Assembly (NCBI GenBank): GCA_029259545.1
Contig: JAPHEE010000003.1
Location: forward strand, 10,049 to 74,048
Length of the DNA stretch: 64,000 nt
Source: Candidatus Alkanophaga volatiphilum
Lineage (GTDB): Archaea > Halobacteriota > Syntropharchaeia > Alkanophagales > B39-G2
Direction: 5' to 3'
A program made the translations under genes and the position numbers. The notes below the pieces were generated by a model. It saw nothing but the letters and a program-made list of their open reading frames with translations. It ran no database searches and was not told the DNA's origin. Numbering within the stretch: position 1 is the stretch's first letter; every line of letters begins with the position of its first letter. This document shows positions 236 to 52,158 of the stretch, in pieces.

Positions 236-1270
236 ATGATAAAGGCGGCAGTCATCGGCGCCTCCGGCTATATCGGCATGGAGCTTGTCCGCCTCTTGCT
301 CATGCATCCCGACGCCGAGCTCGTGGCGGTGACCTCAAGACGCTTTAAAGGTTTGCGGGTCGGCGACGTGCTTCCACACCTTCAAGGCTTCACCGACCTC
401 AGATTCGAGGACGTGGACGTCACTGATATCTCAAAGCGGGCGGACATAGTCTTCACGGCGGTACCGCACGGCGCCGCAATGAATTACGTGCCAAAAATTC
501 TGGAAAACGCAAAAGTCGTGGATTTGAGCGCAGATTACCGGCTCGATCCGCAGGAATATGAGAGGATATACAAGAAGAAGCACGAGGATCCAAGAACTGC
601 AGTTTATGGGCTCACGGAGCTTCACGCCGCCGAGATAAAAGAGGCGAGGCTCGTCGCAAACCCCGGTTGCTACCCGACAGGCGCTGTCCTCGCAGTTGCT
701 CCACTGGTTGCGGAAGGTGTCGTCGCTCACATCGTCTTCGACTCGAAATCTGGAATCTCGGGGGGCGGCGCTGAGCCCTCAGAACGCTCGCACTTTCCAA
801 ACCTCGCCGAAAACATCATTCCCTACAACATAACAAAACACAGGCATGTCGCCGAGATAAGAATGGAGCTGGCACGCCTCGCAGGAACTCCCGCCACGAC
901 GCCGAAGGTGAGCTTCACGCCACACGTCATCCCCTGCATTCGCGGCATTCTGACGACGGCGCACGTGCTCCTACGTGATGACGCGAGCGTACCCACGCCG
1001 GAGCAGCTTAAGGGTCTCTACGAGCGCTTTTATGAGGACAAGCCGTTCATAAGGATCCTTGGCGAGAGGACACCGTCGCTGAGCTATGTTCGTGGCACGA
1101 ACTTCTGCGACATCGGCTTCTGGGTGGACGAAGATGCAAAACGCATCGTCGTGGTCTCGGCGATCGATAACCTTGTGAAGGGCGGCGCCGGACAGGCAGT
1201 TCAGAACATGAACCTGATGTTCGGGCTCGCTGAGACCACCGGGCTGCTCACGCCAAGCTTGACACCATAA
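236..1270 (+). CDS. argC: N-acetyl-gamma-glutamyl-phosphate reductase / LysW-aminoadipate semialdehyde reductase (ArgC/LysY family)
   Basis: MIKAAVIGASGYIGMELVRLL Rossmann N-terminus, PGCYPTG active-site Cys motif; start moved to the internal Met of ORF 191-1270. Confidence 0.8.
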   Translation: MIKAAVIGASGYIGMELVRLLLMHPDAELVAVTSRRFKGLRVGDVLPHLQGFTDLRFEDVDVTDISKRADIVFTAVPHGAAMNYVPKILENAKVVDLSADYRLDPQEYERIYKKKHEDPRTAVYGLTELHAAEIKEARLVANPGCYPTGAVLAVAPLVAEGVVAHIVFDSKSGISGGGAEPSERSHFPNLAENIIPYNITKHRHVAEIRMELARLAGTPATTPKVSFTPHVIPCIRGILTTAHVLLRDDASVPTPEQLKGLYERFYEDKPFIRILGERTPSLSYVRGTNFCDIGFWVDEDAKRIVVVSAIDNLVKGGAGQAVQNMNLMFGLAETTGLLTPSLTP

Positions 1271-1331
1271 TAACGACAGCGGGCGGAAACGAAACATTTA
1301 AAGTCAAATATGACATGACGTTTAGTAGAAC

Positions 1332-2249
1332 ATGGAGCTGAAAGAGGTTCAAGCAATAGACACTATGTGTAGAGCTTACTACTGTGACCCTGAAGTTGCA
1401 AAAGAAGTGTTCAGGCACTATGAGTTTCAGATAATGGGAATAACAACTTTTGGCGGCGTGATGCGGAAACTTGGCATAAAGGAGCCAAGCGAGCTTTGGA
1501 GAGTCCTTGCAGACCTTGGAAAAGGCTCCGTCGAAGCTATGCTGCAGGAAATGGGTGAAATAGGTGTGGAATGTGTCTTCATGGATCAGATGATAATCTG
1601 GTCGGTGCGGGAGCACACTGAGATGTGTCATCTCTCGCTCGATTATCTTGCAAAACTCATAGACAGGGCGGACGGCAGGATAGTCGGCGGCGCCGGTTAC
1701 AACCCCTTTAAAATAAAAGAGAGTCTTAAGGAAATAGAGACCGCGGTCCGCGATTACGGCTTCAAATATGTGTGGTTCCACCCGATAAGCTTCGGGCTCA
1801 GACCGAACGACAAGAAGTGCTATCCGCTGTATGCGAAATGTCTCGAGCTCGAAATCCCCGTGTGCATGCAAGTAGGACATTCTGCAGAGCCGCTGCCAAG
1901 CGAGCCCGGACACCCGATGTATGTGGATGAAGTCGCAATCGACTTCCCTGACTTGAAAATCGTGCTGACGCACACCGGCTGGCCTTGGGTGGACGAGTGG
2001 ATTTCGATGCTTTGGAGGCATCCAAATGTCTACGGGAACATCGGCGCCTATTATCCGAGCGACGTTGCGAGGCGAATGCCGCAAATCATTGATTTCATGG
2101 ATCGTCGCGGTCGTGATAAAGTGCTGTGGGCGACGAACGGCTTTGGACTGACACGCTGTAAAAAGGAATTTTTAGAGCTGCCGCTTAAAGATGAAACGAA
2201 GAAGAAGGTCTTAAGGGAAAATGCGATAAAGGTGTTTAAGCTCCGATGA
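1332..2249 (+). CDS. amidohydrolase-2 family TIM-barrel metal-dependent hydrolase
   Basis: 305-aa ORF with LTHTGWPWVDE...YGNIGAY C-terminal amidohydrolase_2-like signature. Confidence 0.55.
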   Translation: MELKEVQAIDTMCRAYYCDPEVAKEVFRHYEFQIMGITTFGGVMRKLGIKEPSELWRVLADLGKGSVEAMLQEMGEIGVECVFMDQMIIWSVREHTEMCHLSLDYLAKLIDRADGRIVGGAGYNPFKIKESLKEIETAVRDYGFKYVWFHPISFGLRPNDKKCYPLYAKCLELEIPVCMQVGHSAEPLPSEPGHPMYVDEVAIDFPDLKIVLTHTGWPWVDEWISMLWRHPNVYGNIGAYYPSDVARRMPQIIDFMDRRGRDKVLWATNGFGLTRCKKEFLELPLKDETKKKVLRENAIKVFKLR

Positions 2250-2554
2250 AGCGGTTTAAACTCGTACTAAAAGCGGAGCATGGCAAGTGCGTGGAGACCG
2301 TCGCAAAGCATGAGTACTGGCGAGCGGTTGATGAGTACATGCGGCTTGAGGACTATGACGACGCCAACGAGCTTGAGCTGAAAATAGAGCTGTTGCGCAG
2401 GTTCTTGGAAGAAACGGATGTCCGCAAGTACAGGGCGGAGCTTGAGGAGCTTCAAGCCGAGGGGAAGGACGCATTTTTAACTCTCGAGCTGGACGAGAAC
2501 GGCGGAGTGCACGTGCAGATTGAAGTGCAAGAAAACCAGATTGAGGAGAAATGA
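2246..2554 (+). CDS. hypothetical protein (acidic, coiled-coil-like)
   Basis: ORF overlapping upstream stop by 4 nt (ATGA), operon-like arrangement. Confidence 0.4.
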   Translation: MKRFKLVLKAEHGKCVETVAKHEYWRAVDEYMRLEDYDDANELELKIELLRRFLEETDVRKYRAELEELQAEGKDAFLTLELDENGGVHVQIEVQENQIEEK

Positions 2555-2970
2555 GAATTTGTGTGCCGACACTTGGAGAAAAAGGGCTTGAAGATGAAGT
2601 ATTTTGGAATTTCGGACTCTCGCCAACGTTCACGTTCGTCGAGCTGGATAGCGGCGATGTCTCAGTCGTTCAAGGCTTCAAAGATGGCTGCGACGGCAGC
2701 AGGATAACTTCTGAAATCATAATGAACAGCGACGTCAGCGTGGTCGTCTGCAGTGGCATAAGCGCGTTCGCCGCCGAGCGTCTCATGAAGTTTGGGATCT
2801 CTGTTTACATCGGCGCAAAGGGTAAAGTCAGAGATGCAGTGGAGGCGTTCAAGGCAGGGCGGCTGCTGAAACTTGAAAAAGCGGCATGCGTGCACGCGAC
2901 CGCTCATGACGAATGCGCAGCCCGGCGGCAAGAGGAGCACGCTTGTTTCGAAAAATGGCGCTCAAAATAA
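2551..2970 (+). CDS. NifB/NifX-like dinitrogenase FeMo-cofactor-binding domain protein
   Basis: 139 aa, DGCDGSR...VVVCSGISAFAAERL...GISVY motif typical of the NifX/NafY/NifB C-terminal domain family; start overlaps upstream stop. Confidence 0.55.
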   Translation: MRICVPTLGEKGLEDEVFWNFGLSPTFTFVELDSGDVSVVQGFKDGCDGSRITSEIIMNSDVSVVVCSGISAFAAERLMKFGISVYIGAKGKVRDAVEAFKAGRLLKLEKAACVHATAHDECAARRQEEHACFEKWRSK

Positions 2971-3800
2971 CGACGCTCTGCGACAACGTCGCCGCAGTCC
3001 GTGAGGGCATACTCGCGGAACATGGCTTCTCCGCCCTAGTTGAGACTGACGACGTTAAAATTCTCTTCGACACAGGTCAAAGCATTTCGGTCGTTAACAA
3101 TGCGGACGTTTTAGGCATCTCTCTGGATGTTGACGCCGTCGTGCTGAGCCACGGGCATTACGATCACACCGGCGGGCTTCTCCACGTGCTGCGGCGTCTC
3201 AGCAAGGGCGGCATAAGGAAGACGAGGGTTTTAGCGCACCCCGACATCTTCCAGAGGAAATATGTGGTCCGGGAGGGTAAGAAGCGATATGTTGGCATCC
3301 CTTATGCTAGGGATAAACTTGAGAGCTTCGGAGCTCGCTTCGAGCTTCAAGCGAGTGCTGTGCGGTTGGCGTCGAACGTCATGACCACAGGCGAGATAAA
3401 GAGGAGAGTGAACTTTGAGAAGGTGGATAAAAGCCTTTACGTGTGGGATTCAGGCTTGAGGCGAGACGAAGTACTAGATGATCAAGCCTTAGTGATAGAT
3501 CTTGACGAACGAGGGATTTTTGTGGTGCTGGGCTGTGCGCACGCAGGCATGATAAACACGCTGGAGCATGCTCTCGAGCTCACTGGCGCTTCCAAGATAT
3601 ACGGCGTCATCGGCGGCACACATCTCCTCGGAGCTGGCGAGCGTAGGATAAATGAGACGTTACGGTGGCTGAAGCGGCACGATGTCTCGCTGGTCGGCGT
3701 TTCACATTGCACTGGCGTGCGCGTCGCCTTGAAGTTTGCAGAGGTGCTTAAGGAGAAGTTTTTCTTCAATGCTGCAGGCACCACTTTATCCGTAGAGTAG
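2955..3800 (+). CDS. MBL-fold metallo-hydrolase
   Basis: HGHYDHTGG metal-binding motif; start moved to internal MALKITT of ORF 2913-3800. Confidence 0.7.
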   Translation: MALKITTLCDNVAAVREGILAEHGFSALVETDDVKILFDTGQSISVVNNADVLGISLDVDAVVLSHGHYDHTGGLLHVLRRLSKGGIRKTRVLAHPDIFQRKYVVREGKKRYVGIPYARDKLESFGARFELQASAVRLASNVMTTGEIKRRVNFEKVDKSLYVWDSGLRRDEVLDDQALVIDLDERGIFVVLGCAHAGMINTLEHALELTGASKIYGVIGGTHLLGAGERRINETLRWLKRHDVSLVGVSHCTGVRVALKFAEVLKEKFFFNAAGTTLSVE

Positions 3801-4509: not shown

Positions 4510-4638
4510 TCAAGTACGAGAGACGTTTTCGCTGCCGCACTGCGGGCAGCGTACTGGGAACTTCTCGGGATTCTCTTGGAAGACATAGCCGCACTCGCAA
4601 ATGAAAAACACCTTGTCCTCTTCAGGCTCGAAGCTCAT
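4510..4638 (-). CDS. small zinc-ribbon protein (42 aa; C-x-C...C-x2-C)
   Basis: hand-translated MSFEPEEDKVFFICECGYVFQENPEKFPVRCPQCGSENVSRT; below the ORF-track length cutoff. Confidence 0.4.
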   Translation of the reverse strand: MSFEPEEDKVFFICECGYVFQENPEKFPVRCPQCGSENVSRT

Positions 4639-4642
4639 CTTC

Positions 4643-5473
4643 TCACCCCGCAATAGTTACGTTATGCACGACGAGCATGAAGTTGAAAGGCGATGAGCTG
4701 GAAAAATTCACAAAACGCTTAGAAGGGGGAGGCGGGGAGAAAAGTTTGCCGTTGAAGCTGGCATTGACTTCCTCCAAATAATATATCCAAGCTGAGGAAT
4801 ACTTGCCCCCAACGGAAATATTGACGTAGCTGACTTGCGTGTGGGCTACGACTTCAGTTGCATCCGCCTCGTCGGGATACGGTGTTATCGTCAGCTCGGC
4901 AACGCCGCCGCCTGCCGAGAAGGCGCCTGAGACGTTGATTATGGAGATATACAGATATTTGCTGCCATTGACGTTAAGAGAGGTGATTTTAGGCTTTGAA
5001 ACTATAATGCTGCTTGGGAAAGCTTCGACGACGGCGCCGTTCTCATAAACAATTTCATGGCCGCCAAGGAAGAACACAAGGCTTTGATAAGTAAAGTTTT
5101 CGCTGTACGTGCTGCCACTATCACTCCAAGAAATTTTCATCCAGCTTCCATCAGAGAGGAAGAGCGAGCCTTTACTCACCTTAACCTTAATCGTGCGGGA
5201 TGGAGATTGCCCGAGAGCCACTTTTTCGATGTTACTTTGGATATTAAAAAAGACGGTTTCCATGCTCTGGAAGACGGATTCCTCCTGCGTCTTTTTGATG
5301 AGAGGCACGCCGCCGACGTAGACCACAGCAACAACGGTCATGACCACCGAAAACATAAGGATATACCCAATAACTTCAGAAACTCCTCTTTTGTCAGACA
5401 ATATATTGAGGCGTGTTTCCAAATGAGACACTATGCCGCCGCGGGCTTCAGCGTTCCTTATCTTGAGTTTCAC
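4643..5473 (-). CDS. prepilin-like protein with archaeal class III signal peptide
   Basis: KRG|VSEVIGYILMFSVVMTVVAVVYV: basic residues, Gly, then a hydrophobic helix with Glu at +3. Confidence 0.55.
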   Translation of the reverse strand: MKLKIRNAEARGGIVSHLETRLNILSDKRGVSEVIGYILMFSVVMTVVAVVYVGGVPLIKKTQEESVFQSMETVFFNIQSNIEKVALGQSPSRTIKVKVSKGSLFLSDGSWMKISWSDSGSTYSENFTYQSLVFFLGGHEIVYENGAVVEAFPSSIIVSKPKITSLNVNGSKYLYISIINVSGAFSAGGGVAELTITPYPDEADATEVVAHTQVSYVNISVGGKYSSAWIYYLEEVNASFNGKLFSPPPPSKRFVNFSSSSPFNFMLVVHNVTIAG

Positions 5474-5474
5474 C

Positions 5475-5933
5475 TTACCACCTCCTGAAGCTTAAGGTCA
5501 ACTCTTTAACACCGCCATAGGCGGTTTTGCTTTCAACAGCGGATGCGTTCACCTCAGCGCTCATACCGCTGAGCGTGTAATTCAAGGAAAAACCCTTAAA
5601 AGAATACAACTGGAGCTGATCCGAGGCAGGCGGGATGAGAATGCGGTAATTGCGTCCACCAATCTCCACAGGCAAGCGTTCCGTGACGGTGACGGTGCCA
5701 CCATGCGGCAACGTGAGGATCATCTCCATTATTTCGGTGCTAAAAGCATTCCCTAGATCATTAAACTGTTGTTCAGTTGCCACTTTCGACGGAAAGTCGA
5801 GGAGTGTGTCGTGATAAAGCTGCAAGCTTGCTACGAAGATAATAGCAGCTGTTGCGAATATTATGAATGAAATTGGCGACACCGCCCCGCTTTTCACACT
5901 TCCTTTATTCCAGCGGAATGCTTCTTTCGACAT
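5475..5933 (-). CDS. prepilin-like protein (class III signal peptide)
   Basis: N-terminus KSG|AVSPISFIIFATAAIIFVA. Confidence 0.5.
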   Translation of the reverse strand: MSKEAFRWNKGSVKSGAVSPISFIIFATAAIIFVASLQLYHDTLLDFPSKVATEQQFNDLGNAFSTEIMEMILTLPHGGTVTVTERLPVEIGGRNYRILIPPASDQLQLYSFKGFSLNYTLSGMSAEVNASAVESKTAYGGVKELTLSFRRW

Positions 5934-6324
5934 ACACGCCCAGCGTAAAGTTTACTTTCTCATTTGACAGGAAAATGCGAATGTTTGCACTCCTCTCGTC
6001 CCTTTTTACCACGCTTATGTTCACGATAAAACCATGAGCGGCATATATTTCCGAGACGTTCTCGGCATACCACGCCATCAAGTCGTCGAACGCGCTCTCG
6101 TTTTTAACAAGCTTTGCGACCCTCACGGTCTCCTCATAAAGCTCGTTCATCTCGTAGCTGGGAAATCGAGCCTCCACCTGCGAAATACGGTGACCTGCGG
6201 AGAGTGCTTGGTTCAAAAGCAGTACCACCACGAGCAGCCCGAGCGCGAGGATCAGCCCTGAAAGGACGATCCATTGCCCTTTACGTGCCACGTCGCCCCC
6301 CGCAACGCCGCTCAGATCTGCCAT
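5905..6324 (-). CDS. prepilin-like protein (class III signal peptide, KGQ motif)
   Basis: RKGQ|WIVLSGLILALGLLVVVLLL. Confidence 0.6.
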   Translation of the reverse strand: MADLSGVAGGDVARKGQWIVLSGLILALGLLVVVLLLNQALSAGHRISQVEARFPSYEMNELYEETVRVAKLVKNESAFDDLMAWYAENVSEIYAAHGFIVNISVVKRDERSANIRIFLSNEKVNFTLGVYVERSIPLE

Positions 6325-6848
6325 ACCGTCAACCTCACCTCGTAAACCTCAGGAACGCTTCCATTAAGCACGGTGACGAGCTTCCACGCAGAAATGGCGT
6401 TAGCAGGTGGCTCGTCAAAGCCGAAACAGCTGCTGGCATTGATGCATTTGAGCTTCAAGGGATCGAGTTTTAGGATTTCAGCTTTACAAAATACGCCTCT
6501 GTCGTTAAGGTTTGTCCGTAACCATTGTTCTGTGATGTTTTTGGCGCCGTCCCAATGAGAGCCGTTAACCGTTCCATTGACTTGATGATAAAGCCAGCTC
6601 GTGTGATCTTCCCGCTCCATGTCAAGGACATTGAGGAAGTCCTCAGCATAGAGCTTGAGCTGGACGTCCATGGTTTCAGCAAGTTGCATGCTCGTCGTCG
6701 GGACGGAGCGGGCAGCGAATATTACGACCCCTATTACAAGCATCGCTGCCATCAGGGCCTCTATAGTGTGCATTTGACCTTCTTTCGACCCTTCCTTCGA
6801 CTTTTCTACATTCTTGCCTACCATACGTAAACCACAAGCTTCGCGCAT
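6312..6848 (-). CDS. prepilin-like protein (class III signal peptide, EGQ...E+5)
   Basis: KEGQ|MHTIEALMAAMLVIGVVIFA, Glu at +5 as in type IV pilins. Confidence 0.6.
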   Translation of the reverse strand: MREACGLRMVGKNVEKSKEGSKEGQMHTIEALMAAMLVIGVVIFAARSVPTTSMQLAETMDVQLKLYAEDFLNVLDMEREDHTSWLYHQVNGTVNGSHWDGAKNITEQWLRTNLNDRGVFCKAEILKLDPLKLKCINASSCFGFDEPPANAISAWKLVTVLNGSVPEVYEVRLTVWQI

Positions 6849-7468
6849 CTCACATCGCCAAGTCGGGTGCCGGTGTTCGGAGGCGGATCGTCAATAGCGA
6901 CAAGCCGCTCCATCTTCTCGACGTTGATGTTGCCCCCTTCTGGTAGGGGGCTGCCGATTCGCAGTATCGGCGAGCCGTTGAATTCAAAGAGCGAAACATT
7001 GAAGCTATATTCAAGCTCGCTGCCGTCCACCTCGACGAAAAGCCCAAGCTTTCGGTGTATGTGCTGTTCTTCTGAGATGTTCGTTTGATTATTCCACCAC
7101 TCCTGTAGCTTCTCTATCTTCTCCCACGAAAGATTGTTGGGGATTATATCCTCGTAGGACGACCAAGTCGGAGCTCTTGATGCAAGCCCCACTCTCTTAA
7201 CGTTGCCTAAAACCGAGCTCACTGCTGTCAGGTTGCTGAAATTGAGGTTTTTATGCCATTCTGAAGTTATGAAGCCGCTGACATTGTAAATACCGCCGTC
7301 TTCGACGAGAATCGAGCTTGTTCGGTAAGCAACGGGCTGGAGATCGGAGGCTCTCGTCTGCATGGGCGTGAAGAGGGTCGGCAGGAGCGATACGAGAAGA
7401 ACTAATGTGAGCATAAAAACAGCGATGCCTGCGAGGAAATCCGTGCTCACTTGCGCCTTTTTTGTCAT
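6818..7468 (-). CDS. prepilin-like protein (class III signal peptide)
   Basis: KKAQ|VSTDFLAGIAVFMLTLVLLV. Confidence 0.55.
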   Translation of the reverse strand: MTKKAQVSTDFLAGIAVFMLTLVLLVSLLPTLFTPMQTRASDLQPVAYRTSSILVEDGGIYNVSGFITSEWHKNLNFSNLTAVSSVLGNVKRVGLASRAPTWSSYEDIIPNNLSWEKIEKLQEWWNNQTNISEEQHIHRKLGLFVEVDGSELEYSFNVSLFEFNGSPILRIGSPLPEGGNINVEKMERLVAIDDPPPNTGTRLGDVRCAKLVVYVW

Positions 7469-7539
7469 GTTTTAAAAAGTTGGGAGCCAGAGATAAAAAA
7501 TTGCGGAAAATTGGAAGAAAAATATAAAGGATATGGAAG

Positions 7540-10038
7540 TTAACTGACCTCCTCTATGCGCACCCGTATTGCTGCGGCGGGGTCGTTCGTCGGTCCTATG
7601 TATCTCTCCTCCCCACCGACGAGTTCGCGCACGTGTAGCGATACTATGTGTGTGCCGCTGGACATCGGCACCCATGTGACGCTTATCCTCACGTCTTTCT
7701 CCTCTCCGTTTAAAATTTCATCCCTCCGTGCTAAGAGCATGCCGTCAACACGAAGTTTCACCCTGACCGTAACTGAGTGGTTCTTGTTGTTCTTAATGCC
7801 CAGCGCATATGCGTCAACATCGACTGGCTGTCCTATTGTCGGACTTTCGGGAGTGACGCTGAAGATATGCCTACCGCTCCACGTGACGTTACCGCTCATT
7901 TCGGAGCCAACGCCTTCGCCAACCACTATTATCTCAGTCGTTGAATCCGTCTTACCGAAATTGTCTTCAACCTCAAGCCTCACGGTGTACTCTCCAGGCT
8001 GGCTGTATGCGTGGCTTATCATAACCACGTTGCCCTCCACGTCCCAGCCGCCGTCCCCATCTAAGTCCCATCTGTAGACGGCTATGTAGCTGTTGGGGTC
8101 GTAGCTCGCAGAAGCGTCGAGCGTGACGGTCTCGTTCGTCTTCACTTCGGTCTTGTCGGCTTCGAGCACCGCCACCGGCGGCAAGTTCCTCAAGACTCTT
8201 ATCCCATGTGTTGCGCTCGTTTTCGCCCCGTCGTCGTCGGTGACGGTCAGCCTTACTGTGTAGTTACCGGCGCTGGCGTAAGCGTGGGACACGACGGCGC
8301 CGCTCGCGGTCGTTCCGTCGCCGAAGTCCCACTCGTAGGCGACAATGACGCCGTCGATGTCTGAAGCATCTGCTTCGAACTGCACCTCGACGCCCTCACT
8401 TGTGACCTCTGGTCCCGCTATGCTCACGCTCGGCGCCCTGTTATTCACCTTCACAGTAACGCTCGTGCTGTTCTTCGCCCCGTGGTTGTCGGTGACGGTC
8501 AGGGTCGCCGTGTAGGTGCCGTCGTCGGCGTAGGCGTGGGACACGACGGCGCCGCTTGCGGTCGTTCCGTCGCCGAAGTCCCACTCGTAGCTGATTATCG
8601 AGCCGTCGGGGTCGTAGCTCGCAGAAGCGTCGAACGTTATGTCCTCATAGGTGTAAGTTTCGTTCGGACGTGCGGTCGCAACGGCGACGGGCGGCGCCGT
8701 GACAGCGACGCTGAGCGAGGGCAGCGGGACTTCGTGCTCCTCACCGAAGACATCTTCGTAAGCGACTATGGAGTTCTCGGTATTCAGAACGACATCGCCC
8801 GAAACCAATGGCTTGACGTCGAAGGACACGCTCCAAGTCTCATTGACGGAAAGCTCGCCGACGCTCCATATTAGCTTGTTGCCCACGATCTGCGGCGTCT
8901 GCGTCGCATTGCCGGCGTACGTGACGGCATCTGCGAGCTTGAACGTGACGACGACGTCCTTGGCGGTGATGTTGGAAAGCTCGACCGCCAGCTCCTTGTA
9001 GATGTTAAGGAGATCATCACTGGTTGCCGGGAAGAAGGATTCGCCGCCCGTCGTTTCTGCGATCTGCGTCAGCTCGTCGTAGTTGACGCCGCCCCAGCCG
9101 ATGACGTAGATCGGGATCCCGTCAGCCGCCGCCCTTTGTGCTTGATCGAGCGGGCTGACGCCCATGTTCCACCAGCCGTCCGTCAGCAGGATTATGGCTT
9201 TGACGGCGTCATTCCGCCCGTAAGCTTCGAGGTGGTCGAGCGCCCTGTCGAGACCCTCCCCCATGGGCGTGCCGCCGCTCGCAGAAAGCCCGTTGATCGC
9301 ACTCTTGACGGCGTCCTTGTCCGTAGTCAGGCTCTGAACAACTTTACAATACGCAGAATAGCTCCAGCCATCGGAATGGAACTTCACGAGCGCCGCCCTG
9401 TCGTTGCTCTTTAAGAGATCGACGAACTCGCTAGCAGCATTCTTTGCCCCTTCTATTCTCACAGGCTGTAGCTCCACGCAGAACGTCCTATCGGGCTGCG
9501 TGTAGCCTGAGCGGTAGTAGTAGAGCCTTGCGTAGACCTCATAAGTCCCTGGTTGGAGGTTGCTCCAGCGAACAACCGAGTACGCCCCCTTGGTACTCGT
9601 CTTCGCCCCTGTATCTTTGTTCTTCAGGTAAGCGTAGTAGTAGTCGTAGTAATAGAAGTAGACGTCAGCGCCGTAGCCTCTACCCGGTAAGGTCTGAAGC
9701 ATGATCTCCACATCCGCAGGCGAGGAGATGGTGAACTCCCCGATCTTCTGGTAGCTCGTGGTGAGCGTCACGTCACGCACGTCGGTTATGATCGCCCCGT
9801 AGCGGTTCATCGAGCCTGAGCAGTCCATGACGAGGGCGACGTCGAGCGGGAACGATATCTCAGACGTCCCACTTCCGGTGAGCACGATCGTCACCCTCGT
9901 GGTCTCGCCGAGCTGGATGACGTCCGGGCTGACGCTCGCGTCCACACTCACGTGCACGCCGCCTTGCGCCGCCGTCGCCACGGTTGCCGCCACGAGCATT
10001 GCGAATGCAAAGATTGCTGACAGTTTTGCGCCTCTCAT
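7540..10038 (-). CDS. large secreted von Willebrand factor A domain protein with three PKD domains and a Tyr-rich segment
   Basis: signal peptide MRGAKLSAIFAFAMLVAATVATA; vWA MIDAS-like DVALVMDCSGSM and LLTDGWWN motifs; three repeats of YEWDFGDGTTASG / YRWDLDGDGGWD (PKD). Confidence 0.8.
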   Translation of the reverse strand: MRGAKLSAIFAFAMLVAATVATAAQGGVHVSVDASVSPDVIQLGETTRVTIVLTGSGTSEISFPLDVALVMDCSGSMNRYGAIITDVRDVTLTTSYQKIGEFTISSPADVEIMLQTLPGRGYGADVYFYYYDYYYAYLKNKDTGAKTSTKGAYSVVRWSNLQPGTYEVYARLYYYRSGYTQPDRTFCVELQPVRIEGAKNAASEFVDLLKSNDRAALVKFHSDGWSYSAYCKVVQSLTTDKDAVKSAINGLSASGGTPMGEGLDRALDHLEAYGRNDAVKAIILLTDGWWNMGVSPLDQAQRAAADGIPIYVIGWGGVNYDELTQIAETTGGESFFPATSDDLLNIYKELAVELSNITAKDVVVTFKLADAVTYAGNATQTPQIVGNKLIWSVGELSVNETWSVSFDVKPLVSGDVVLNTENSIVAYEDVFGEEHEVPLPSLSVAVTAPPVAVATARPNETYTYEDITFDASASYDPDGSIISYEWDFGDGTTASGAVVSHAYADDGTYTATLTVTDNHGAKNSTSVTVKVNNRAPSVSIAGPEVTSEGVEVQFEADASDIDGVIVAYEWDFGDGTTASGAVVSHAYASAGNYTVRLTVTDDDGAKTSATHGIRVLRNLPPVAVLEADKTEVKTNETVTLDASASYDPNSYIAVYRWDLDGDGGWDVEGNVVMISHAYSQPGEYTVRLEVEDNFGKTDSTTEIIVVGEGVGSEMSGNVTWSGRHIFSVTPESPTIGQPVDVDAYALGIKNNKNHSVTVRVKLRVDGMLLARRDEILNGEEKDVRISVTWVPMSSGTHIVSLHVRELVGGEERYIGPTNDPAAAIRVRIEEVS

Positions 10039-10049
10039 GGCTTCACCCC

Positions 10050-10325
10050 CTAACTGGTTATTTCGATCGTGGTGTTTTCGAGCACTTGCTGCACGAACTC
10101 CACTAAGTTTTCGATGTAGACGACGCTCGCCGCATCAAACGGGTCGGTACCCACTACGAACTCGACGAGGTCGGGCAACCCGTCACCGTCGGAGTCCACA
10201 TCCACGGCGTCGGGAATGCCATCGCCGTCGGCGTCCGGAAGCTCGCCGGCAAGCGAGACCGAAAGCAGCGAAAGCATGCAAAGAACCAGCACCACGATGA
10301 GAACCGCAGCAAAAATCTTCTTCAT
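10050..10325 (-). CDS. small secreted protein with tandem DxDxDG calcium-binding-type motifs
   Basis: signal peptide then DADGDGIPDAVDVDSDGDGLPD (thrombospondin type-3 / EF-hand-like Asp loops). Confidence 0.55.
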   Translation of the reverse strand: MKKIFAAVLIVVLVLCMLSLLSVSLAGELPDADGDGIPDAVDVDSDGDGLPDLVEFVVGTDPFDAASVVYIENLVEFVQQVLENTTIEITS

Positions 10326-10720
10326 AGCCCACCCTCCCTCTTTAAGAGGCGTTCAACAAGCCATACGTCATCGGCTATGCCGCACGTGCTGCTTTTGCCT
10401 CGTGCGCTCTTGTAAATTTTAAATGAGATGTCGAACTTCTGGTCATGCTCGACATCCGGCTCCGTGACGACCCCGTTGTCGTCATCAGGGAAGGAGACCG
10501 CTGCCGCCGCCGCAGTAGGAGCCGTGAGCGCGAGCAGCACTGCCGCCCCTGAAGCCTCGAAATTCGGACGCCTCCCAAGCTGCGCATCTTTGATGTCTGG
10601 AACTCCGTTGTGGTCGGCGTCCACGAATATGTGCGAGAGCGTTGCGTCGTTCGCGCTACCGCACATTACGAATATAAAGAATGCTACGAGCACTGCGACT
10701 GCCACGATTCTTACCCGCAT
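10322..10720 (-). CDS. small secreted protein with DADHNGVPD calcium-binding-like motif
   Basis: signal peptide MRVRIVAVAVLVAFFIFV, Asp-rich loop, Ala-rich linker. Confidence 0.45.
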   Translation of the reverse strand: MRVRIVAVAVLVAFFIFVMCGSANDATLSHIFVDADHNGVPDIKDAQLGRRPNFEASGAAVLLALTAPTAAAAAVSFPDDDNGVVTEPDVEHDQKFDISFKIYKSARGKSSTCGIADDVWLVERLLKREGGL

Positions 10721-10886
10721 AGAGCCTCAATCAGATGTTAAGAAAGTCGTTTTAAGTCCATTTCTGAAGGATAAAAATTTGTTGCCGTTGTTTTTGAAGT
10801 TGCGCAAGCGTGATTGCTTTCGGGATATCGAAAATTTGTTAAAAGTTACGATTAGACTTATATTGGAGTTTCTAAAATTTTCTCAC

Positions 10887-11678
10887 GTGAAGCGGCTTAC
10901 GGTGCTGACGGCGGTAGCAGGCTTGGCAATTGCCGCCCTCTTGATCATATGCATGTCGATGCTCGCACCGCCGCACGAAGACAAAGCTGAAGCGCTACTT
11001 GCATCGTCAAAAGATGCGGTAAAGAGCCTTCACACGTTAAGAGCCGAAGTTTATACACTGAAGGATGTCAAGGCGCCTGCCGCACACGAACGAGCTAAAT
11101 ATGTTTTCAGTATTGAGCTTGCAAGCGATTTGGGCACGAAAATCTCGTTTAATGGGTTTGAGTTCGAATATGAGGGGGAGAACGAAGAAAAGATGGAAAT
11201 GGTGGGTGGTGAGCTTGGAAAGACACTTGAAGGCGCTTGGCTTCTTGAAAAAGACACGTATTATTGGCTGTACACGCCTGCGGTCGCGGAACATGTCGTC
11301 GAGTACAGGACGGGGAGCGGGCTGCTGAAGTACGAATTCCTGCCCATATTCCACTTTGACATCGCTGAGCTTTTCAGTTTTGCCGAAAACCCCAGGTATT
11401 TAGGGACCGAGCGTCTAAGGGTTGGGAACGATACTATCGAGACGCACGTCGTCGGGTTCGACCTGCCGCCGTCGCTCATGCCGTGGCGGGCTGCTGCCAC
11501 CGTGAAAGTGTGGATTTCCGATGCCGACAAGCTCCCCCTTAGAGCCATCATCACCTCAAGATACGAGAACACGAACATCACGCTCGAATTCGGCTGCACA
11601 CACTACGAAAAAGACGTGGAACTGCCACCTGAACATTTTGAAGTCCCTGAGGATCTTCTCATAGTCAAGCGTTATTGA
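10887..11678 (+). CDS. membrane-anchored/secreted protein, possibly LolA-like (DUF4367-type) fold
   Basis: probable GTG start giving [26 protein letters not shown] anchor (ORF-track start 10428 overlaps the minus-strand gene); domain assignment tentative. Confidence 0.4.
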
Positions 11679-19483: not shown

Positions 19484-20326
19484 GAAATAGTGCCACTTCA
19501 GTCCGGTTCGCCCTTTCGTTTTCTAATCGCTTTGGATTCACTTTCACTTATGTTCGCACATCGCTCCAAGTGCCACATAAAACCTATGGGTGATCTCTGG
19601 AAACGGTAGTCCAGTATTTCTGGAAGTGAGAAAACAGCTACTGAAAAAAGATATACGGATTCCTTCCACAGATTGGATTCATGATTATGCCCCGAGGTTG
19701 GGGATTGGGGAATACTTTATTGTTGAAGTTCCGAAAGGAAAACGATCGAAGAAGCGTGGGGTTATGTAGAGAGGGCAGAGGAGTGCTTTAGAGCGTGTCA
19801 AAGGGGTTTTCGCAAACTGCCGAGAAGTTGGAACGTTGCTTAACAAAATTGTAGGCGATAAATTCAAAAGCTCTCCAACGATTAGAAAATGGAACAAAGT
19901 GATCGGAAAGTTTGAGCACTTGGCGTCGTTAGGTCTGCATGTGGAGGAGATAAAGAAGGAAAGGCCTGAAGGGGATGTCAGCCACTCCCGTCTGAAGAAC
20001 GGGAGCTTGCTCACAATGTCCCGCCGGGACGTTCATCAGCCAATCAGGACGGCTGCTTCGCCTCACGGGCTGGAAAGCTGGCAGACCGCTCCAGCCCACG
20101 AGAACAAATACGCAAAACACATATAAATAATCTTCGCCAATTCCTCCCCCCGACAGGGGGCTTCCTTGGCGGTGGGAGTGTGAAGATTGGGAAAGCGGAG
20201 GCTGAGCACGTACTGATTTAAGGCATTAATCAAGTATGCGGAAGAGTTGTTAAAGGGAGGCTGACCTGAAGCGAGCTATGCTCAAATTTCACTGCGGCAA
20301 GGCTTCACACCGGAACGTCGAGTGAG

Positions 20327-20863
20327 ATGCCCAGCTTGCAAATTAAACGGCGGGATGAAAATATGACAAAATTGCACCTGATTGGTCACATAGTATATGC
20401 TGGCTTGTATGGAATATTGATGGCATCCGCAATCTCTTGTTATAATTCTGCCAATTTGGCGGAGCTACTTTACGCAGGATGGGCAATCTTGACATTTGGA
20501 ATTATCTTTTTGCTATGGTCAAGCAAATCACGAAAGAAAAGGTATAGAGAGAACATGAGTAAGAGTAGGGAAACTTTTGTTGAAAGCGGGACGTATGCTT
20601 TTGTTCGCCATCCAGAATTCCTCAGTCACATCCTGATAATTTTTGCACTGATTGTTATCTCGCAACACTGGATCAGCTTGGCTGTCGGCACAATCCTAAT
20701 TGTTCTACTGTGTCTTGCTATGGTAGAAGAAGAAAGGAGAAACATAGAAAAGTTTGGCGATGCATATAAGGATTATATGAAAAGAGTTCCGAGAATAAAT
20801 TTAGTAGCCGGAATTGTCGGGCAAATGCGTAGCGGGAGAGGAAATAAGAGAAAAAGCAGATGA
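20327..20863 (+). CDS. isoprenylcysteine carboxyl methyltransferase (ICMT/PEMT) family membrane protein
   Basis: TYAFVRHPEFLSHILIIFALIVIS...EEERRNIEKFGDAYKDYMKRVPR signature; lower-GC gene. Confidence 0.65.
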   Translation: MPSLQIKRRDENMTKLHLIGHIVYAGLYGILMASAISCYNSANLAELLYAGWAILTFGIIFLLWSSKSRKKRYRENMSKSRETFVESGTYAFVRHPEFLSHILIIFALIVISQHWISLAVGTILIVLLCLAMVEEERRNIEKFGDAYKDYMKRVPRINLVAGIVGQMRSGRGNKRKSR

Positions 20864-20884
20864 AACTCTAAAATGAGTGGGCGC

Positions 20885-20990
20885 CCTGCGGTGCTTCGTG
20901 CCTCGCCCTTTGGGTTACTTAACAGGTGGATATTTGGTCCGCTTACGCTCGCCCAAATTTGCTCCGCAAACTTTACATATCCCTAACATT
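20885..20990 (+). repeat. direct repeat copy 1 (island boundary / duplicated upstream region)
   Basis: CAGGTGGATATTTGGTCCGCTTACGCTCGCCCAAATTTGCTCCGCAAACTTTACATATCCC, about 85% identical to 23374-23434, with weaker similarity extending 40 nt upstream. Confidence 0.55.
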
Positions 20991-21066
20991 AGGTGAAACG
21001 ATTTCCATCGCCTCGAAAAGATTTAAAATTAAGGAAGTTAATTTTTCTATTAACAGGGTGAGAAGA

Positions 21067-21375
21067 ATGCTGACTTCAGAAGAGATATTGAGGAAAATAG
21101 AGGAAAATAGAGATAAAATCAAAAGATTTGGGGTTAAAAGGATAGGTTTGTTTGGCTCATATGCAAGGGGGGAGCAGAGAGCAGAGAGTGATGTAGATAT
21201 AGTGGTGGAATTTGAAAAGGGAAAGGCGACCTTTGATAATTTTCTGAATCTGGCAGAATATCTGGAAGAGCTTCTGGGTAAAAAAATTGATCTGCTCACA
21301 AAGGAGGGTGTAAGAAGTATAAAAATAGAACACATCCGAAAAGAAATTGAGGAGAATGTGATCTATGTCTCGTAG
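21067..21375 (+). CDS. mntA: nucleotidyltransferase antitoxin (MntA-like, minimal nucleotidyltransferase)
   Basis: GLFGSYARGEQRAESDVDIVVEF motif; start moved to internal MLTSEEILRK because the ORF-track start lies inside the direct repeat. Confidence 0.7.
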   Translation: MLTSEEILRKIEENRDKIKRFGVKRIGLFGSYARGEQRAESDVDIVVEFEKGKATFDNFLNLAEYLEELLGKKIDLLTKEGVRSIKIEHIRKEIEENVIYVS

Positions 21376-21607
21376 AGGCGATAGAGAGTTCCTGCTTGAT
21401 ATACTTGAAGCATGTAACAGAATTATTGATTTCACAAAAGACATGTCATACGATGAATTTGCAGAAGACATAAAAACACAGGATGCGGTATTACGAAACA
21501 TAGAGATAATAGGTGAGGCTGTTAAGAATATATCGGATGAACTAAAAAACAGACACGGCGATATAGAATGGAAAAAGATTGCAGGATACACTTCTATTTC
21601 GGAGTGA
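21365..21607 (+). CDS. hepT: HepT-like (DUF86) HEPN toxin
   Basis: 80 aa overlapping mntA by 11 nt; HEPN-like helix pattern with R-x4-6-H region (NRHGDIEW). Confidence 0.65.
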   Translation: MSRRGDREFLLDILEACNRIIDFTKDMSYDEFAEDIKTQDAVLRNIEIIGEAVKNISDELKNRHGDIEWKKIAGYTSISE

Positions 21608-21813
21608 ATTTAGATATAGTCTGGGACGTTGCCAGAAATAAAGTTCCGGTATTGAAAGATAAGATTTCAAAGTTATTATCGGAACTGGAGTGAAAAAAGG
21701 GAAATTAAAGTATGCAATGGTGTGCACTCTTGCAACCCGAAGGGTTGCTTGGGGCTAACGCCCTCACTCATGAACACAACGAAACGGTTGTCGCTCATAC
21801 AGCAGTTGCTAAA

Positions 21814-22242
21814 ATGGAGAAGATCTCCTTATGGCAGATCGGAAAAGAGAAAGTTATTGAAATGGATACAAAATTAGCCAATAATTTGATTTCAACTCTT
21901 GAAAACGTGAATTTACAAGGAACGTGTGCCATATTTGAAGAAGACGTTGAAAAACTGAAGCAAGAAGGCAGGATAATTGAAATTACATTCAGAGAGCCGA
22001 TCAACGTAACGATAAGCCAATGGATTAAACCAGAGGATAGGAATCACATTCCAATTAATGCAAGCGGTTACAGGATTCTGACAAACGTTGAAAAAGCAGT
22101 ATTTGTCTTGAAAGGAGATTACGAAGGAAATATACTAACAAAAAGTGCCGATGTTAAAGGATATGGTTGCTGGGCAATCTCAAAAGATGGTGAGATAGAC
22201 AAAAATTGGATAAGTGAGGTTGAAAAGGAGGTTGAAAAATGA
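21814..22242 (+). CDS. hypothetical protein
   Basis: AT-rich ORF; start moved to internal MEKISLW; no recognisable domain. Confidence 0.4.
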   Translation: MEKISLWQIGKEKVIEMDTKLANNLISTLENVNLQGTCAIFEEDVEKLKQEGRIIEITFREPINVTISQWIKPEDRNHIPINASGYRILTNVEKAVFVLKGDYEGNILTKSADVKGYGCWAISKDGEIDKNWISEVEKEVEK

Positions 22243-23291
22243 GAAAAAAGTTAATAGCTCTCAGCATTCTTTGCATCCTCGTAGGATTCGTCGGTATAAC
22301 CATTAATCACTTAAATTCTGATCAGATTTACACCTGCATTTCACCGAGCGCTTATGGCTTGCCTTTATCCAGCTTGTGGAAAACTGTTTTGGAAAATGCT
22401 GGGGTGGAAAACGAGACAGCCGTTTTACAGTGGCTTTACGTTAAGATAGATAGAGATGGGAGAGTTGAGCACATCGTTTTGCAGTTCTCCGGAACTTTCG
22501 ATGGAGAGCCGAGGTGGTATCAGGTTGAGGTCTCTTGTGGAAAGGTGAGGTGGCACTCGTGGAAAGCTGAGAAAGTTGGCGAAGGCTTGCACCCCTTAAC
22601 CCTGTTCAAGGAGATAGAGAAGCTCAACCTTAGAGAAATACCTTCTGGCGAGAACGGTATTACCATCGACACAGCTCCGATATCGGGAAGCGTTGGATAC
22701 GAAGACAAGTATTCCGACATCTACCTTCTGAAAAATGGCGTGCTAATCCGATTGAAGAGGATAATCTTTGATAGCGACATACCTTGGTATCCGATTGGGA
22801 TTTGCAAGAGGGAAAAATACAACGCATCTGTAGTCGAAGCCAACAGAATTGAGGTTAGCAAGAATGTTGTCATCAACTTAACCAAGGGAAATAAGGAAAA
22901 CCAGTGTATCGTGATTTTCATCCCCCAAGACTTGAGCAAAGCTAAAGTCGTTGAGTATAGAGAAGGTTTGATGACACCACCACTCCAGAAGCTTGAGGAG
23001 GTATCAAGACAACATCCAATAGTTAAAAAATACCTTGAAATGCATCCAAGTGCAACATATTACGTTGAAATGGTATATCTTACATCTGAGGGCTTAGTTT
23101 ACCAAGTTGACGAACAATGGAGGATAAAAGATTTTGAAAGCGTTAGTAGTGCCGGTAAACCCGCAGATGGTAAAGATCATTACTGCTGGGTTGTTCACTG
23201 GCACGATCCTACGCCAGGAGTTGGCATAGACCATATTGTTGTCTACATTGATAGAGACACCTATGATAGCGTGTTTGTCCAAGAAGGGTAA
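22239..23291 (+). CDS. hypothetical membrane-anchored/secreted protein
   Basis: 350 aa, N-terminal TM/signal MRKKLIALSILCILVGFVGITI; start overlaps upstream stop (ATGA). Confidence 0.5.
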   Translation: MRKKLIALSILCILVGFVGITINHLNSDQIYTCISPSAYGLPLSSLWKTVLENAGVENETAVLQWLYVKIDRDGRVEHIVLQFSGTFDGEPRWYQVEVSCGKVRWHSWKAEKVGEGLHPLTLFKEIEKLNLREIPSGENGITIDTAPISGSVGYEDKYSDIYLLKNGVLIRLKRIIFDSDIPWYPIGICKREKYNASVVEANRIEVSKNVVINLTKGNKENQCIVIFIPQDLSKAKVVEYREGLMTPPLQKLEEVSRQHPIVKKYLEMHPSATYYVEMVYLTSEGLVYQVDEQWRIKDFESVSSAGKPADGKDHYCWVVHWHDPTPGVGIDHIVVYIDRDTYDSVFVQEG

Positions 23292-23334
23292 AGGTGTTGA
23301 AAATAAAAAGAGGAAAATGATAGGCGGGACTTCG

Positions 23335-23441
23335 TGAACTCTCCGCTTTGCTTCGGTGCCAACACTCGGACGACAGGTGGATATGTGGCTTCGCTACGCT
23401 CACCCAAATTTGCTCTGCAAACTTTACATATCCCCAGAATG
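23335..23441 (+). repeat. direct repeat copy 2
   Basis: matches 20885-20990 (see copy 1). Confidence 0.55.
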
Positions 23442-23470
23442 TTAGGCAAAATGCTTAAGGTGTAGAGAAA

Positions 23471-23806
23471 ATGAACGACCAAATAAATCCAGAACCACTA
23501 AATAAAACTGGCAAAGTGATGGTAGCCTTAATAATATTGGAAGTTATAGTAATGTGGATGTTTGCAATTTACGCTTATTTAACCCTTCCCCAGGAAGTTC
23601 CTGTTCACTTTGGATTTAAAGGAGAACCAACAAGGTATGGTGATAAATCTACATTTTTAATCGTTCCAGCAGCATTCAGCATAGCTCCTGTAATATTTCT
23701 CTTCTGGACAAAGTTTAGATTTACTCTAATTAACAGAATCAACATAACGAAAGTTTCTCCAGAAAAAAGGGGTTGCCGGAGTTGTTCCTCCCGACCAGAA
23801 CGGTGA
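23471..23806 (+). CDS. DUF1648 (SdpI/YhfL N-terminal-like) membrane protein, possibly 3'-truncated at the island edge
   Basis: LPQEVPVHFGFKGEPTRYGDKST motif; the C-terminal tail runs into GC-rich sequence (CRSCSSRPER), suggesting junction or truncation. Confidence 0.5.
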   Translation: MNDQINPEPLNKTGKVMVALIILEVIVMWMFAIYAYLTLPQEVPVHFGFKGEPTRYGDKSTFLIVPAAFSIAPVIFLFWTKFRFTLINRINITKVSPEKRGCRSCSSRPER

Positions 23807-24048
23807 ACTTGGAAAATTCCAGCGGCTTTTTACAGCTCCTGATGCCCCTGAATTCCCTAATGTTCACCTGTGAGACGAACATGGCAACCATCTCAACGTT
23901 GCTGCCGGCACTCTTAAACGTTGTCGCCGACGGGTTAAGGTCGTCGCCACGTGAGCGCTGGTACGGGAGATCCACGATCGTACTAATAGCTTGTCCGTGG
24001 GAATTTCCAAGCGGACAAGCTAAATACTCCCGGAACTAACTAAGGGGG

Positions 24049-51783: not shown

Positions 51784-52158
51784 TCCGACGTTAACGGCTG
51801 ATGCTCATCTCTAAGTGCAAAGTTCGACCAATGGGCGAATTGGGCGGGTGCGTGGGTCGTAGCCAGCGTTTGTCGGGCGAGTATGATGGTGCCGAGCCCG
51901 ACGGCAAGGTTGAGCAGGCACATCTTTGAGATATTTGAATAGGCGAAGGCAATTGTTTTACTCTAATAAAATCCTCTTTTAAGAAAAGCGATGGATAATT
52001 ATGGCGAGCCTATTTGAGAAAATTCCTTGCTTATACAGGGAGGCACACTGTCGCAAGAGCGAGCCATCCACAAACGTGGAGGTCAAGATCTTCTGAGAAG
52101 CTCCCACCTGAAAGAGTTTTAGGTTACTGCTGGAAAGGTGGAAGAAAATAATTTGAAA

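Follow-up and report, generated by a model that had tools for sequence, protein, structure and literature searches.

How can a compact set of pilin-like genes, placed next to the gene of a large secreted adhesin-like protein, work where no assembly motor is encoded nearby? The question is raised by a locus of Candidatus Alkanophaga volatiphilum (Archaea; Halobacteriota; Syntropharchaeia; Alkanophagales) that lies in a stretch of 64,000 nucleotides (here called the window; contig JAPHEE010000003.1 of assembly GCA_029259545.1, positions 10,049 to 74,048 of the forward strand). Ten genes, numbered G0 to G9, occupy positions 4510-11678 of the window. The answer we favor, with a probability of about 0.6, is that G1-G5 are substrates of a prepilin peptidase that would form a low-copy priming or tip complex of a PilA-type filament, that this filament would be built by an ATPase and a platform protein acting in trans, and that G6 would be displayed on it as an adhesin with a vWA metal-ion-dependent adhesion site (MIDAS) and PKD domains. 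The genes and their parts are as follows (aa, amino acids).

G0, 4510-4638, minus strand: 42-aa four-Cys zinc-ribbon (rubredoxin-like) protein without signal peptide; last gene of the operon.
G1, 4643-5473, minus strand: 276 aa, DUF7289 pilin-like protein; OD814_000253, MDF2956631.1.
G2, 5475-5933, minus strand: 152 aa, DUF7266-like, pilin-like; OD814_000254.
G3, 5905-6324, minus strand: 139 aa, weakly DUF7261-like, pilin-like; OD814_000255.
G4, 6312-6848, minus strand: 178 aa, DUF7288 pilin-like protein.
G5, 6818-7468, minus strand: 216 aa, DUF7287 pilin-like protein; OD814_000257.
G6, 7540-10038, minus strand: 832-aa secreted adhesin-like protein with Sec signal, vWA domain, DUF11-like region, three PKD domains and a conserved C-terminal domain; OD814_000258, annotated merely as "PKD repeat domain protein".
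C-terminal domain of G6, 7543-7941, minus strand: residues 700-832.
Insert in the vWA domain of G6, 9460-9801, minus strand: residues 80-193.
G7, 10050-10325, minus strand: 91 aa, secreted, two TSP3-type Asp-rich repeats; OD814_000259.
G8, 10322-10720, minus strand: 132 aa, with a signal peptide or anchor and one further hydrophobic stretch; opens the operon; OD814_000260.
Spacer between the divergent genes G8 and G9, 10721-10886: 166 bp, AT-rich, presumed promoter region.
G9, 10887-11678, plus strand: 263 aa, membrane-anchored, probably of LolA/LprG-like fold; OD814_000261.
Next gene after G9: valyl-tRNA synthetase, MDF2956640.1.

The locus tags were assigned by exact-sequence look-up in the metagenome-assembled genome (MAG) of Ca. 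A. volatiphilum, MCA70_species_1, where identical proteins span OD814_000253-261. The minus-strand operon is transcribed in the order G8-G7-G6-G5-G4-G3-G2-G1-G0, and G9 is divergent. Neighboring genes of the operon overlap by 4-31 nt or are separated by 1-11 nt, the sole exception being the 71-nt gap between G6 and G5. A scan for promoters and terminators was of bacterial type and is uninformative for an archaeal host. In the comparison with the sister species Ca. A. liquidiphilum, the ratio of nonsynonymous to synonymous substitution rates (dN/dS) is 0.05-0.20 for all ten genes, with dS near saturation. The ten genes form one conserved unit under purifying selection. An earlier model-made description, drawn from the letters of the window and their open reading frames (ORFs) and called here the sequence-only reading, had placed all the ORFs that it described at the right coordinates; it is confirmed apart from the 42-aa G0, which it overlooked, the start of G9 and its account of G8 as a second DxDxDG protein.

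Each of the proteins G1-G5 has one hydrophobic segment, which is N-terminal and follows a short basic leader whose last residue is G or A. The sequence-only reading had recognized five adjacent minus-strand N-termini like those of class III signal peptides. These are conserved across homologues, and the motifs that it quoted, KRG↓VSE, KSG↓A, RKG↓QW, KEG↓QMHTIE and KKA↓QV (↓, predicted cleavage site), are all present. In alignments with homologues of up to 12 other loci the motifs stay in register, and the leaders vary in length and sequence; cleaved class III signal peptides are typically recognized by just this pairing of a variable leader with a conserved mature N-terminus. The conserved forms are [KR]G↓VSEV(I/V)GY for G1 (alignment of 16 homologues), G↓(A/T/V)-x-x-(P/I/L) for G2, [KR]G↓Q(W/M/L)I(I/L)L for G3, (G/A)↓Q-x-x-T-(I/L)-E for G4 and (A/G)↓(Q/K)-x-(S/T)-x-D-(F/L) for G5. 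A crude class III motif scan, applied in six frames to all ORFs from 50 aa upward, recovered G1, G2, G3 and G5 and missed G4 solely through the Glu at +5. Its other matches were the Sec signal of G6, a permease with ten transmembrane segments and two antisense ORFs. Since the scan is so sparse elsewhere, five such N-termini in succession lie far beyond chance.

The family matches point in the same direction. Above the Pfam gathering scores, G1 matches DUF7289 (E 3.8e-24), G4 matches DUF7288 (E 3.7e-12) and G5 matches DUF7287 (E 7.5e-13), and G1 also comes near the threshold of Pilin_N (E 6.5e-5; 24.2 bits, cut-off 25.2). A literature search by name found no papers on these DUF names. Judged by description, G1 fits the published arCOG02911, a family of 250-550 aa and all-beta structure that Makarova, Koonin & Albers (2016, PMC4858521) predict to be a minor pilin. 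The AlphaFold2 (AF2) model of G1 shows a helix at residues 67-86 followed by a beta-sandwich, with a predicted local distance difference test (pLDDT) score of 70-94, and falls below 50 at residues 1-67. A type-IV-pilin-like nature of G1-G5 is thus supported by sequence.

The surroundings of the homologues indicate to which system the proteins belong. The loci that carry the argument are the following; the label L distinguishes them in the text.

L004, A. liquidiphilum (sister species): identical order, G9 / G8-G7-G6-G5-G4-G3-G2-G1-G0.
L001, L002, L009 and L010, loci of the anaerobic methanotrophic group ANME-1 (Methanophagales): PilA-type Pilin_N genes beside the set.
L007, DATKWH010000050.1, labelled Bathyarchaeia.
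L011: five-gene order, with a 757-aa DUF7266+VWA protein.
L013: the five-gene order recurs.
L015, Geoglobus: five-gene order, with an 853-aa DUF7266+VWA protein.
L017, Haloplanus: 513-aa DUF7266+PKD protein.
L018 and L019, two archaeal MAGs from NCBI.

The order G5-G4-G3-G2-G1 of the window matches that of L011, L015, L018 and L019. In the ANME-1 loci and L007, an ATPase with PilB3_N and T2SSE domains, a T2SSF platform protein and a DUF7125 (KaiC/RecA-like) protein are followed by one or two PKD or vWA proteins, after which come the G3-, G2- and G1-type genes and a zinc-ribbon gene; in L001, a ParA/MinD gene together with DUF7287 and DUF7288 lies on the opposite side of the ATPase, and in L002 and L009 a G9 homologue is also in the set, where the contig reaches. 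In L018 and L019 the series DUF7287, DUF7288, 127-aa gene, 140-aa gene, DUF7289 and zinc ribbon is divergent from a 152-aa gene, the ATPase, T2SSF, DUF7125 and a 245-aa protein. Because their homologues adjoin the PilB3-type ATPase, the T2SSF platform and DUF7125 (L001, L002, L007, L018 and L019), G1-G5 belong to a type IV pilus system. The module is the accessory-pilin/adhesin set of the euryarchaeal type IV pilus clade 2 / system 2, which has PilB3/PilC3-type machinery.

The presumed adhesin G6 bears a Sec-type signal peptide, a vWA domain (VWA, E 1.3e-20) and three PKD domains (E 8e-69), so that its first description, an 832-aa signal-peptide protein with a vWA (MIDAS) domain and three PKD domains, is upheld both by Pfam and by the residues. 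D72-x-S74-x-S76, T257 and D287 complete the MIDAS, and the vWA domain is predicted to have an intact metal-ion-dependent adhesion site. Between the DxSxS loop and helix alpha-1 it carries a Tyr-rich insert of about 115 residues (...YFYYYDYYYAYL...YARLYYY...) for which Pfam has no family; the vWA protein of L007 aligns with the same insert arrangement. The insert might form an "arm" beside the MIDAS, like that of PilB or RrgA.

At the other end of G6 there is a domain of about 130 residues that is common to nine proteins with differing N-terminal modules, namely vWA with three PKD domains, vWA alone, one or two PKD domains, or TSP3 with PKD. All nine genes lie directly upstream of, or among, homologues of G3-G2-G1, and the domain was found in none of the other ORFs of the retrieved loci. 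It is rare, with 33 matches at E<=1e-3 among 1.84 billion representative proteins; the full-length matches reach the C-terminus or stop a few residues short of it, in proteins of 227-832 aa. No Pfam family covers the domain, and its assignment as CARDB was dropped, Pfam giving it no support. L007 is a complete locus of the ANME-1 type: it encodes the machinery (ATPase, platform and DUF7125) and two adhesins that bear the C-terminal domain of G6, of which one has vWA, together with the G3, G2 and G1 types and the zinc ribbon; its protein similarities are ANME-1-like, which suggests horizontal transfer or a mis-binned contig.

The connection between this protein and the pilins comes from gene fusions. 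In three distant lineages the protein at the G2 position is long and joins DUF7266 to VWA (L011 and L015) or to PKD (L017). In phmmer searches G2 matches the N-termini of the 757-aa protein of L011 (4e-7) and of the 853-aa protein of L015 (2e-4), of which the former scores above and the latter below the DUF7266 threshold. The distribution is complementary: where proteins with the G6-type C-terminal domain are encoded, G2 is short, and where G2 is fused they are missing. The window has the unfused state, with one gene for G2 (152 aa) and another for G6. Taken together, the fusions, the shared C-terminal domain and the complementary distribution link G6 to the pilin set, and we infer from these sequence comparisons that G6 may be a detachable adhesive head which would dock through its C-terminal domain, probably on G2. 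A location of G6 at the tip is plausible.

Could G6, G7 and G8 instead be ordinary surface or S-layer-associated neighbors that are functionally unlinked to the pilus? PKD and vWA proteins are very common on archaeal surfaces, G6 has a Sec signal and no pilin-like N-terminus, the 71-nt gap separates it from G5, and L018 and L019 are without any such protein. However, the place upstream of the pilin genes is kept in Alkanophaga, ANME-1 and L007, the C-terminal domain of G6 is essentially confined to proteins at this position, vWA or PKD is fused to a DUF7266 pilin in the three distant lineages, and the TSP3 repeat of G7 is fused to an ANME-1 adhesin. The comparison of gene order in relatives thus shows a conserved link of vWA/PKD proteins with pilins and not an accidental adjacency, and we give little credence to mere neighborhood. 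A more specific version of the docking proposal, which we put forward as a tentative possibility, is that ANME-1 and Alkanophaga have a split modular pilin, in which vWA, PKD or TSP3 heads would plug non-covalently, via the one rare domain of about 130 residues, onto the DUF7266-type subunit of a five-protein tip complex. If this is true, obligately syntrophic archaea would have exchangeable tips for recognition of partners or surfaces while the motor is encoded elsewhere, and in A. volatiphilum, which is without multihaem cytochromes, such a tip could hold the archaeon to its sulfate-reducing partner.

G7 and G8 had been described together as two secreted proteins built around DxDxDG loops, which holds for G7 and fails for G8. 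G7 has a signal peptide and a TSP3_bac match above the threshold (29.9 bits, cut-off 25), so that TSP3_bac repeats are recognized and calcium binding is predicted; its counterpart in L004 has 84% identity, with dN/dS 0.08. G8 has two degenerate DxDxNG-like loops only and no family match in Pfam or NCBIfam, and is 68% identical to its counterpart in L004 (dN/dS 0.20). A repeat of the G7 type forms the N-terminus of the ANME-1 PKD adhesin in L009, so that G7 resembles a part of such an adhesin that has become a separate protein. The proposed calcium regulation is not borne out, since the TSP3 repeats are clear in G7 alone and are in ANME-1 merely the N-terminus of an adhesin.

Where, then, is the motor? 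Single-sequence and profile searches at E<=10 found no ATPase or platform ORF in the 64-kb window, as the sequence-only reading had stated, and neither a GxGD-type polytopic peptidase nor a PilA-type gene was seen there. The sequence-only reading had supposed the machinery to be encoded elsewhere; this was correct, and the machinery has been located. L021, a metagenomic contig of 9.4 kb, encodes a PilB3_N/T2SSE ATPase, T2SSF and DUF7125; the 4.9 kb upstream are occupied by common housekeeping genes and contain no pilin gene. Its tetranucleotide correlation with the window is r = 0.935, compared with 0.85 for the sister-species locus and at most 0.54 for all non-Alkanophaga loci; its proteins share clusters of >=90% identity with MDF2957361-63, which are consecutive proteins of A. 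volatiphilum; and the trio is collinear with the pilin-linked trios of ANME-1 and L018, at 59-63% identity for the ATPase, 50-53% for the platform and 30-40% for DUF7125. Composition, clusters and collinearity tie L021 both to the same organism and to pilin-linked machinery, so that an ATPase-platform-DUF7125 trio is placed at a separate locus of the same MAG. No Alkanophagales names occur among the best 120 homologues of the ANME-1 ATPase. A MinD/ParA-type ATPase is encoded in the window at 33284-34075 on the minus strand (CbiA, E 1e-26); it is weakly similar to the ParA beside the ANME-1 ATPase, and no link with the module is shown. Makarova, Koonin & Albers (2016, PMC4858521) propose a stand-alone FleN/MinD ATPase for clade 2 pili.

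The lack of ATPase, platform, peptidase and major pilin in the 64 kb would also fit an orphaned, decaying remnant left after the ATPase was lost or relocated. This idea was discarded and is hardly credible, as it is contradicted by selection (ten ORFs intact in two species, with the dN/dS values given above), by the transcription of G1 and by the matching ATPase-platform-KaiC-like trio in the same MAG.

The evidence for transcription, in alkane cultures, comes from the supplementary tables of Zehnle et al. (2023, PMC10322722), in which OD814_000253 (G1) has FPK values of 385, 217 and 273 in three table passages and 0 in a fourth; the nonzero values indicate that G1 is transcribed. The same tables list this gene as pilA under "electron transport", and they bring up another possibility, namely that the proteins of the module are building blocks of conductive filaments, by which direct interspecies electron transfer would link the archaeon with its sulfate-reducing partner. 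In its favor, Alkanophaga is without multihaem cytochromes, and pilA and flaB are highly expressed, according to that study. However, G1 is a 276-aa beta-rich DUF7289 protein of predicted minor-pilin type, and its expression is several-fold below that of the Pilin_N-type genes OD814_000332 and OD814_001675, for which the supplement gives FPK 647-3129. Nothing in the module hints at redox cofactors or aromatic stacking, the sole Tyr-rich stretch being the insert in the vWA domain of G6. We therefore consider a conductive role very improbable. OD814_000332 and OD814_001675, along with OD814_000328, which is also annotated pilA in the tables of that study, are candidate major pilins for the module. 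Judging from their tag numbers, OD814_000328 and OD814_000332 are probably just beyond the end of the window on the same 137-kb contig. A provisional equation of G6 and G1 with OD814_000328 and OD814_000332 was wrong, the exact look-up giving OD814_000258 and OD814_000253.

Several points weigh against a filament-tip complex that bears an adhesin. G2 (DUF7266, E 0.0018) and G3 (DUF7261) stay under the Pfam thresholds. The N-terminus of G1 is modelled with low confidence, and Foldseek finds no significant fold match for the G1 model in PDB (best E 3e-3, template modelling (TM) score <=0.14), so that neither a pilin fold nor a resemblance to bacterial minor pilins is demonstrable. The cleavage, filament incorporation and tip position of the DUF7287, DUF7288 and DUF7289 proteins are all predicted, and the case for docking of G6 on G2 consists solely of gene fusion or fission and co-occurrence. 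The prepilin peptidase was not located, and the contig L021 ends directly after DUF7125. Finally, L018 and L019 have neither an adhesin nor a PilA-type gene within +/-10 kb, so that the five proteins may need no adhesin for their action, and perhaps no long filament either.

This last observation leads to the alternative that G1-G5 are membrane-anchored parts of the machine, either a short pseudopilus or a FlaF/FlaG-like base that would span the S-layer, and that G6 stands on the cell surface. In L018 and L019 the five genes do occur together with the ATPase and the platform; the strict 1:1:1:1:1 conservation and the fixed gene order fit a stoichiometric complex; and the leader of G4 is long (about 25 residues) and has an acidic residue at -2. 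On the other hand, variable leaders, a conserved G or A at -1 and conserved mature N-termini are as expected for cleaved substrates, the fusions of G2-type proteins to vWA or PKD mirror the bacterial modular pilins found at pilus tips, and PilA-type genes neighbor the set in L001, L002, L009 and L010. On balance we regard a base complex as less likely than a tip complex and as the main rival to it.

For the preferred reading, a tip or priming complex of a PilA-type filament, the following course may be proposed. G1-G5 would be processed by a prepilin peptidase encoded elsewhere and would come together by their hydrophobic N-terminal helices in a complex of low abundance, which would prime or cap a filament. 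Separately encoded PilA-type pilins would make up this filament, with the ATPase and the platform acting in trans to build it. G6 would be exported by Sec and attached non-covalently through its C-terminal domain, most likely to G2, and would present its metal-dependent vWA (MIDAS) site and PKD domains toward a surface or the partner bacterium. G7 may be the N-terminal part of such an adhesin, separated from the rest, while the membrane-anchored, LolA-like G9 and the cytoplasmic zinc ribbon G0 may be conserved accessory factors.

The two presumed accessory factors are recurrent members of these loci. G0 starts 4 nt past the stop of G1, has weak matches to zinc-ribbon families of Pfam and shows a dN/dS of 0.05 against A. 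liquidiphilum. In at least ten loci (L001, L002/L003, L004, L006, L007, L009, L010, L018 and L019) a homologue of it comes next after DUF7289, and gene callers missed this homologue in some of them, e.g. L001. The start of G9 is the GTG at 10887, as set by its homologues and by the 263-aa protein at NCBI. The 416-codon ORF of the program-made list is an artefact, its extra 153 codons (10428-10886, plus strand) running antisense through the real gene G8; the dN/dS of G8 and its exact match at NCBI indicate that G8, and not the extension of G9, is real in that stretch.

G9 homologues adjoin the adhesin in L002 and L009 and the ATPase operon in L018 and L019, where the 245-aa protein is the homologue (hhalign probability 99.7%, E 1.4e-25). 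The AF2 model of G9 is of low confidence (mean pLDDT 49), because the homologue search gave just two proteins and hence a shallow alignment. From this low-confidence model, the top 38 Foldseek matches in PDB all belong to the LolA superfamily (LprG, LppX, RseB and LolA), with a best E of 3e-7 and TM scores of 0.3-0.46. The Pfam matches to DUF2092, DUF3108 and LolA_like are all weak and sub-threshold, and a profile search against PDB sequences gave no match. A LolA/LprG-like fold of G9 is likely, as judged from the model, and the divergent anchored LolA-like gene of the sequence-only reading is probably just that, and a conserved member of the system. Term searches of the available text of Makarova, Koonin & Albers (2016) and of Sivabalasarma & Albers (preprint, 2026) returned no mention of LolA; "zinc" was not found in the available text of the former, whose two occurrences of "Zn-ribbon" stand outside the passages shown.

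Other features of the window are distant from the module. A TnpB/Cas12f-like protein is encoded at 39630-40754 on the plus strand (Cas12f1-like TNB domain, E 2e-23), a remnant of an IS200/IS605-type element. Two islands of low GC content, at 20000-24000 and 52000-54000 (GC 0.41-0.43, about 0.55 elsewhere), contain the ORFs 22239-23291, 52159-53454 and 53503-54246, which have N-terminal hydrophobic segments and no Pfam family, as well as a nucleotidyltransferase and a DUF1648 protein. The islands may hold horizontally acquired genes of surface proteins.

The interest of the locus lies in the biology of its host. Both Alkanophaga and ANME-1 are confined to close consortia with sulfate reducers, and the published work on Alkanophaga points loosely to "pilA/flaB" filaments. 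The accessory-pilin/adhesin module OD814_000253-261 is now set apart from the major pilin candidates, and testable parts have been gained: a MIDAS adhesin, a candidate docking domain and a series of fused and split forms across archaea. In a class of systems whose pilin-like proteins bear "DUF" names in Pfam, the gene fusions indicate which subunit would carry the adhesin.

How does the module compare with known systems? The sequence-only reading presented it as a new archaeal analogue of the bacterial operon of minor pilins and PilY1. This claim to novelty cannot be kept, since the class is already catalogued as clade 2 / system 2, and both its adhesins and the PilY analogy are in the literature. 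Clade 2 pilin sets are described as often lying apart from the ATPase/TadC module and as exchangeable (Makarova, Koonin & Albers 2016, PMC4858521), system 2 loci often encode adhesin-like proteins (Sivabalasarma & Albers, preprint 10.64898/2026.04.22.720090), and the adhesin-like proteins of such loci are already likened to PilY in the clade 2 / system 2 surveys. With this class, which includes the pil loci of Haloferax volcanii (the source of the Pfam name PilB3_N), the module shares the DUF7287, DUF7288, DUF7289 and DUF7261/7266-like families, the PilB3_N+T2SSE ATPase, the single T2SSF platform and the KaiC-like protein, as well as separable pilin sets and loci with adhesin-like proteins. 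It differs in three respects: the split is complete here, since neither machinery nor peptidase nor PilA was found in the 64 kb; the adhesin is encoded on its own, has a Sec signal and ends in a C-terminal domain specific to the lineage; and the LolA-like and 42-aa zinc-ribbon proteins are conserved members.

The comparison with PilY1 itself is one of logic. A vWA domain occurs in some PilY1 proteins. As in the FimU-PilVWX and PilY1 systems of M. xanthus and P. aeruginosa, a fixed set of low-abundance pilin-like proteins stands beside a large non-pilin adhesin with a variable head and a conserved C-terminal part. However, there are five pilin-like genes here and four there, Pfam and NCBIfam searches reveal no PilY1/PilC beta-propeller C-terminal domain in G6, no PilY1 is found among its sequence matches in PDB, and no counterpart of the calcium site of PilY1 was identified. 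G6 is thus not a homologue of PilY1, and the module works like the bacterial system without being a member of it. In addition, archaeal pili are not known to retract.

Modular vWA pilins (PilB and TadG) and docked tip proteins are nearer functional analogues than PilY1. PilB of S. sanguinis is a vWA-bearing pilin (PMC8179133). Like PilB and TadG, the fusions of L011 and of Geoglobus (L015) place a vWA domain with complete MIDAS on a subunit of type IV pilin type, and they match this arrangement exactly, whereas the vWA protein of the window is unfused, has a Sec signal and its own C-terminal domain, and carries the insert of about 115 residues after the DxSxS loop; the pilin modules are without detectable sequence homology to bacterial pilins. 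For the docked type, several kilLMN "Tip" clusters serve one machine in the Kil (Tad-like) pilus of Myxococcus xanthus, and TcpF of V. cholerae docks on the tip minor pilin TcpB (PMC12075869). The likeness lies in paralogous tip-complex operons for one machine and in a secreted protein docked non-covalently on a tip minor pilin; these cases are bacterial, have three-subunit tips and show no homology, while the archaeal case is purely predicted. The module is not a new kind of machine; what is new here is the series of fused and split DUF7266/adhesin forms, the rare C-terminal domain, the LolA-like and zinc-ribbon members, and the tie to an organism whose attachment to its partner is unexplained.

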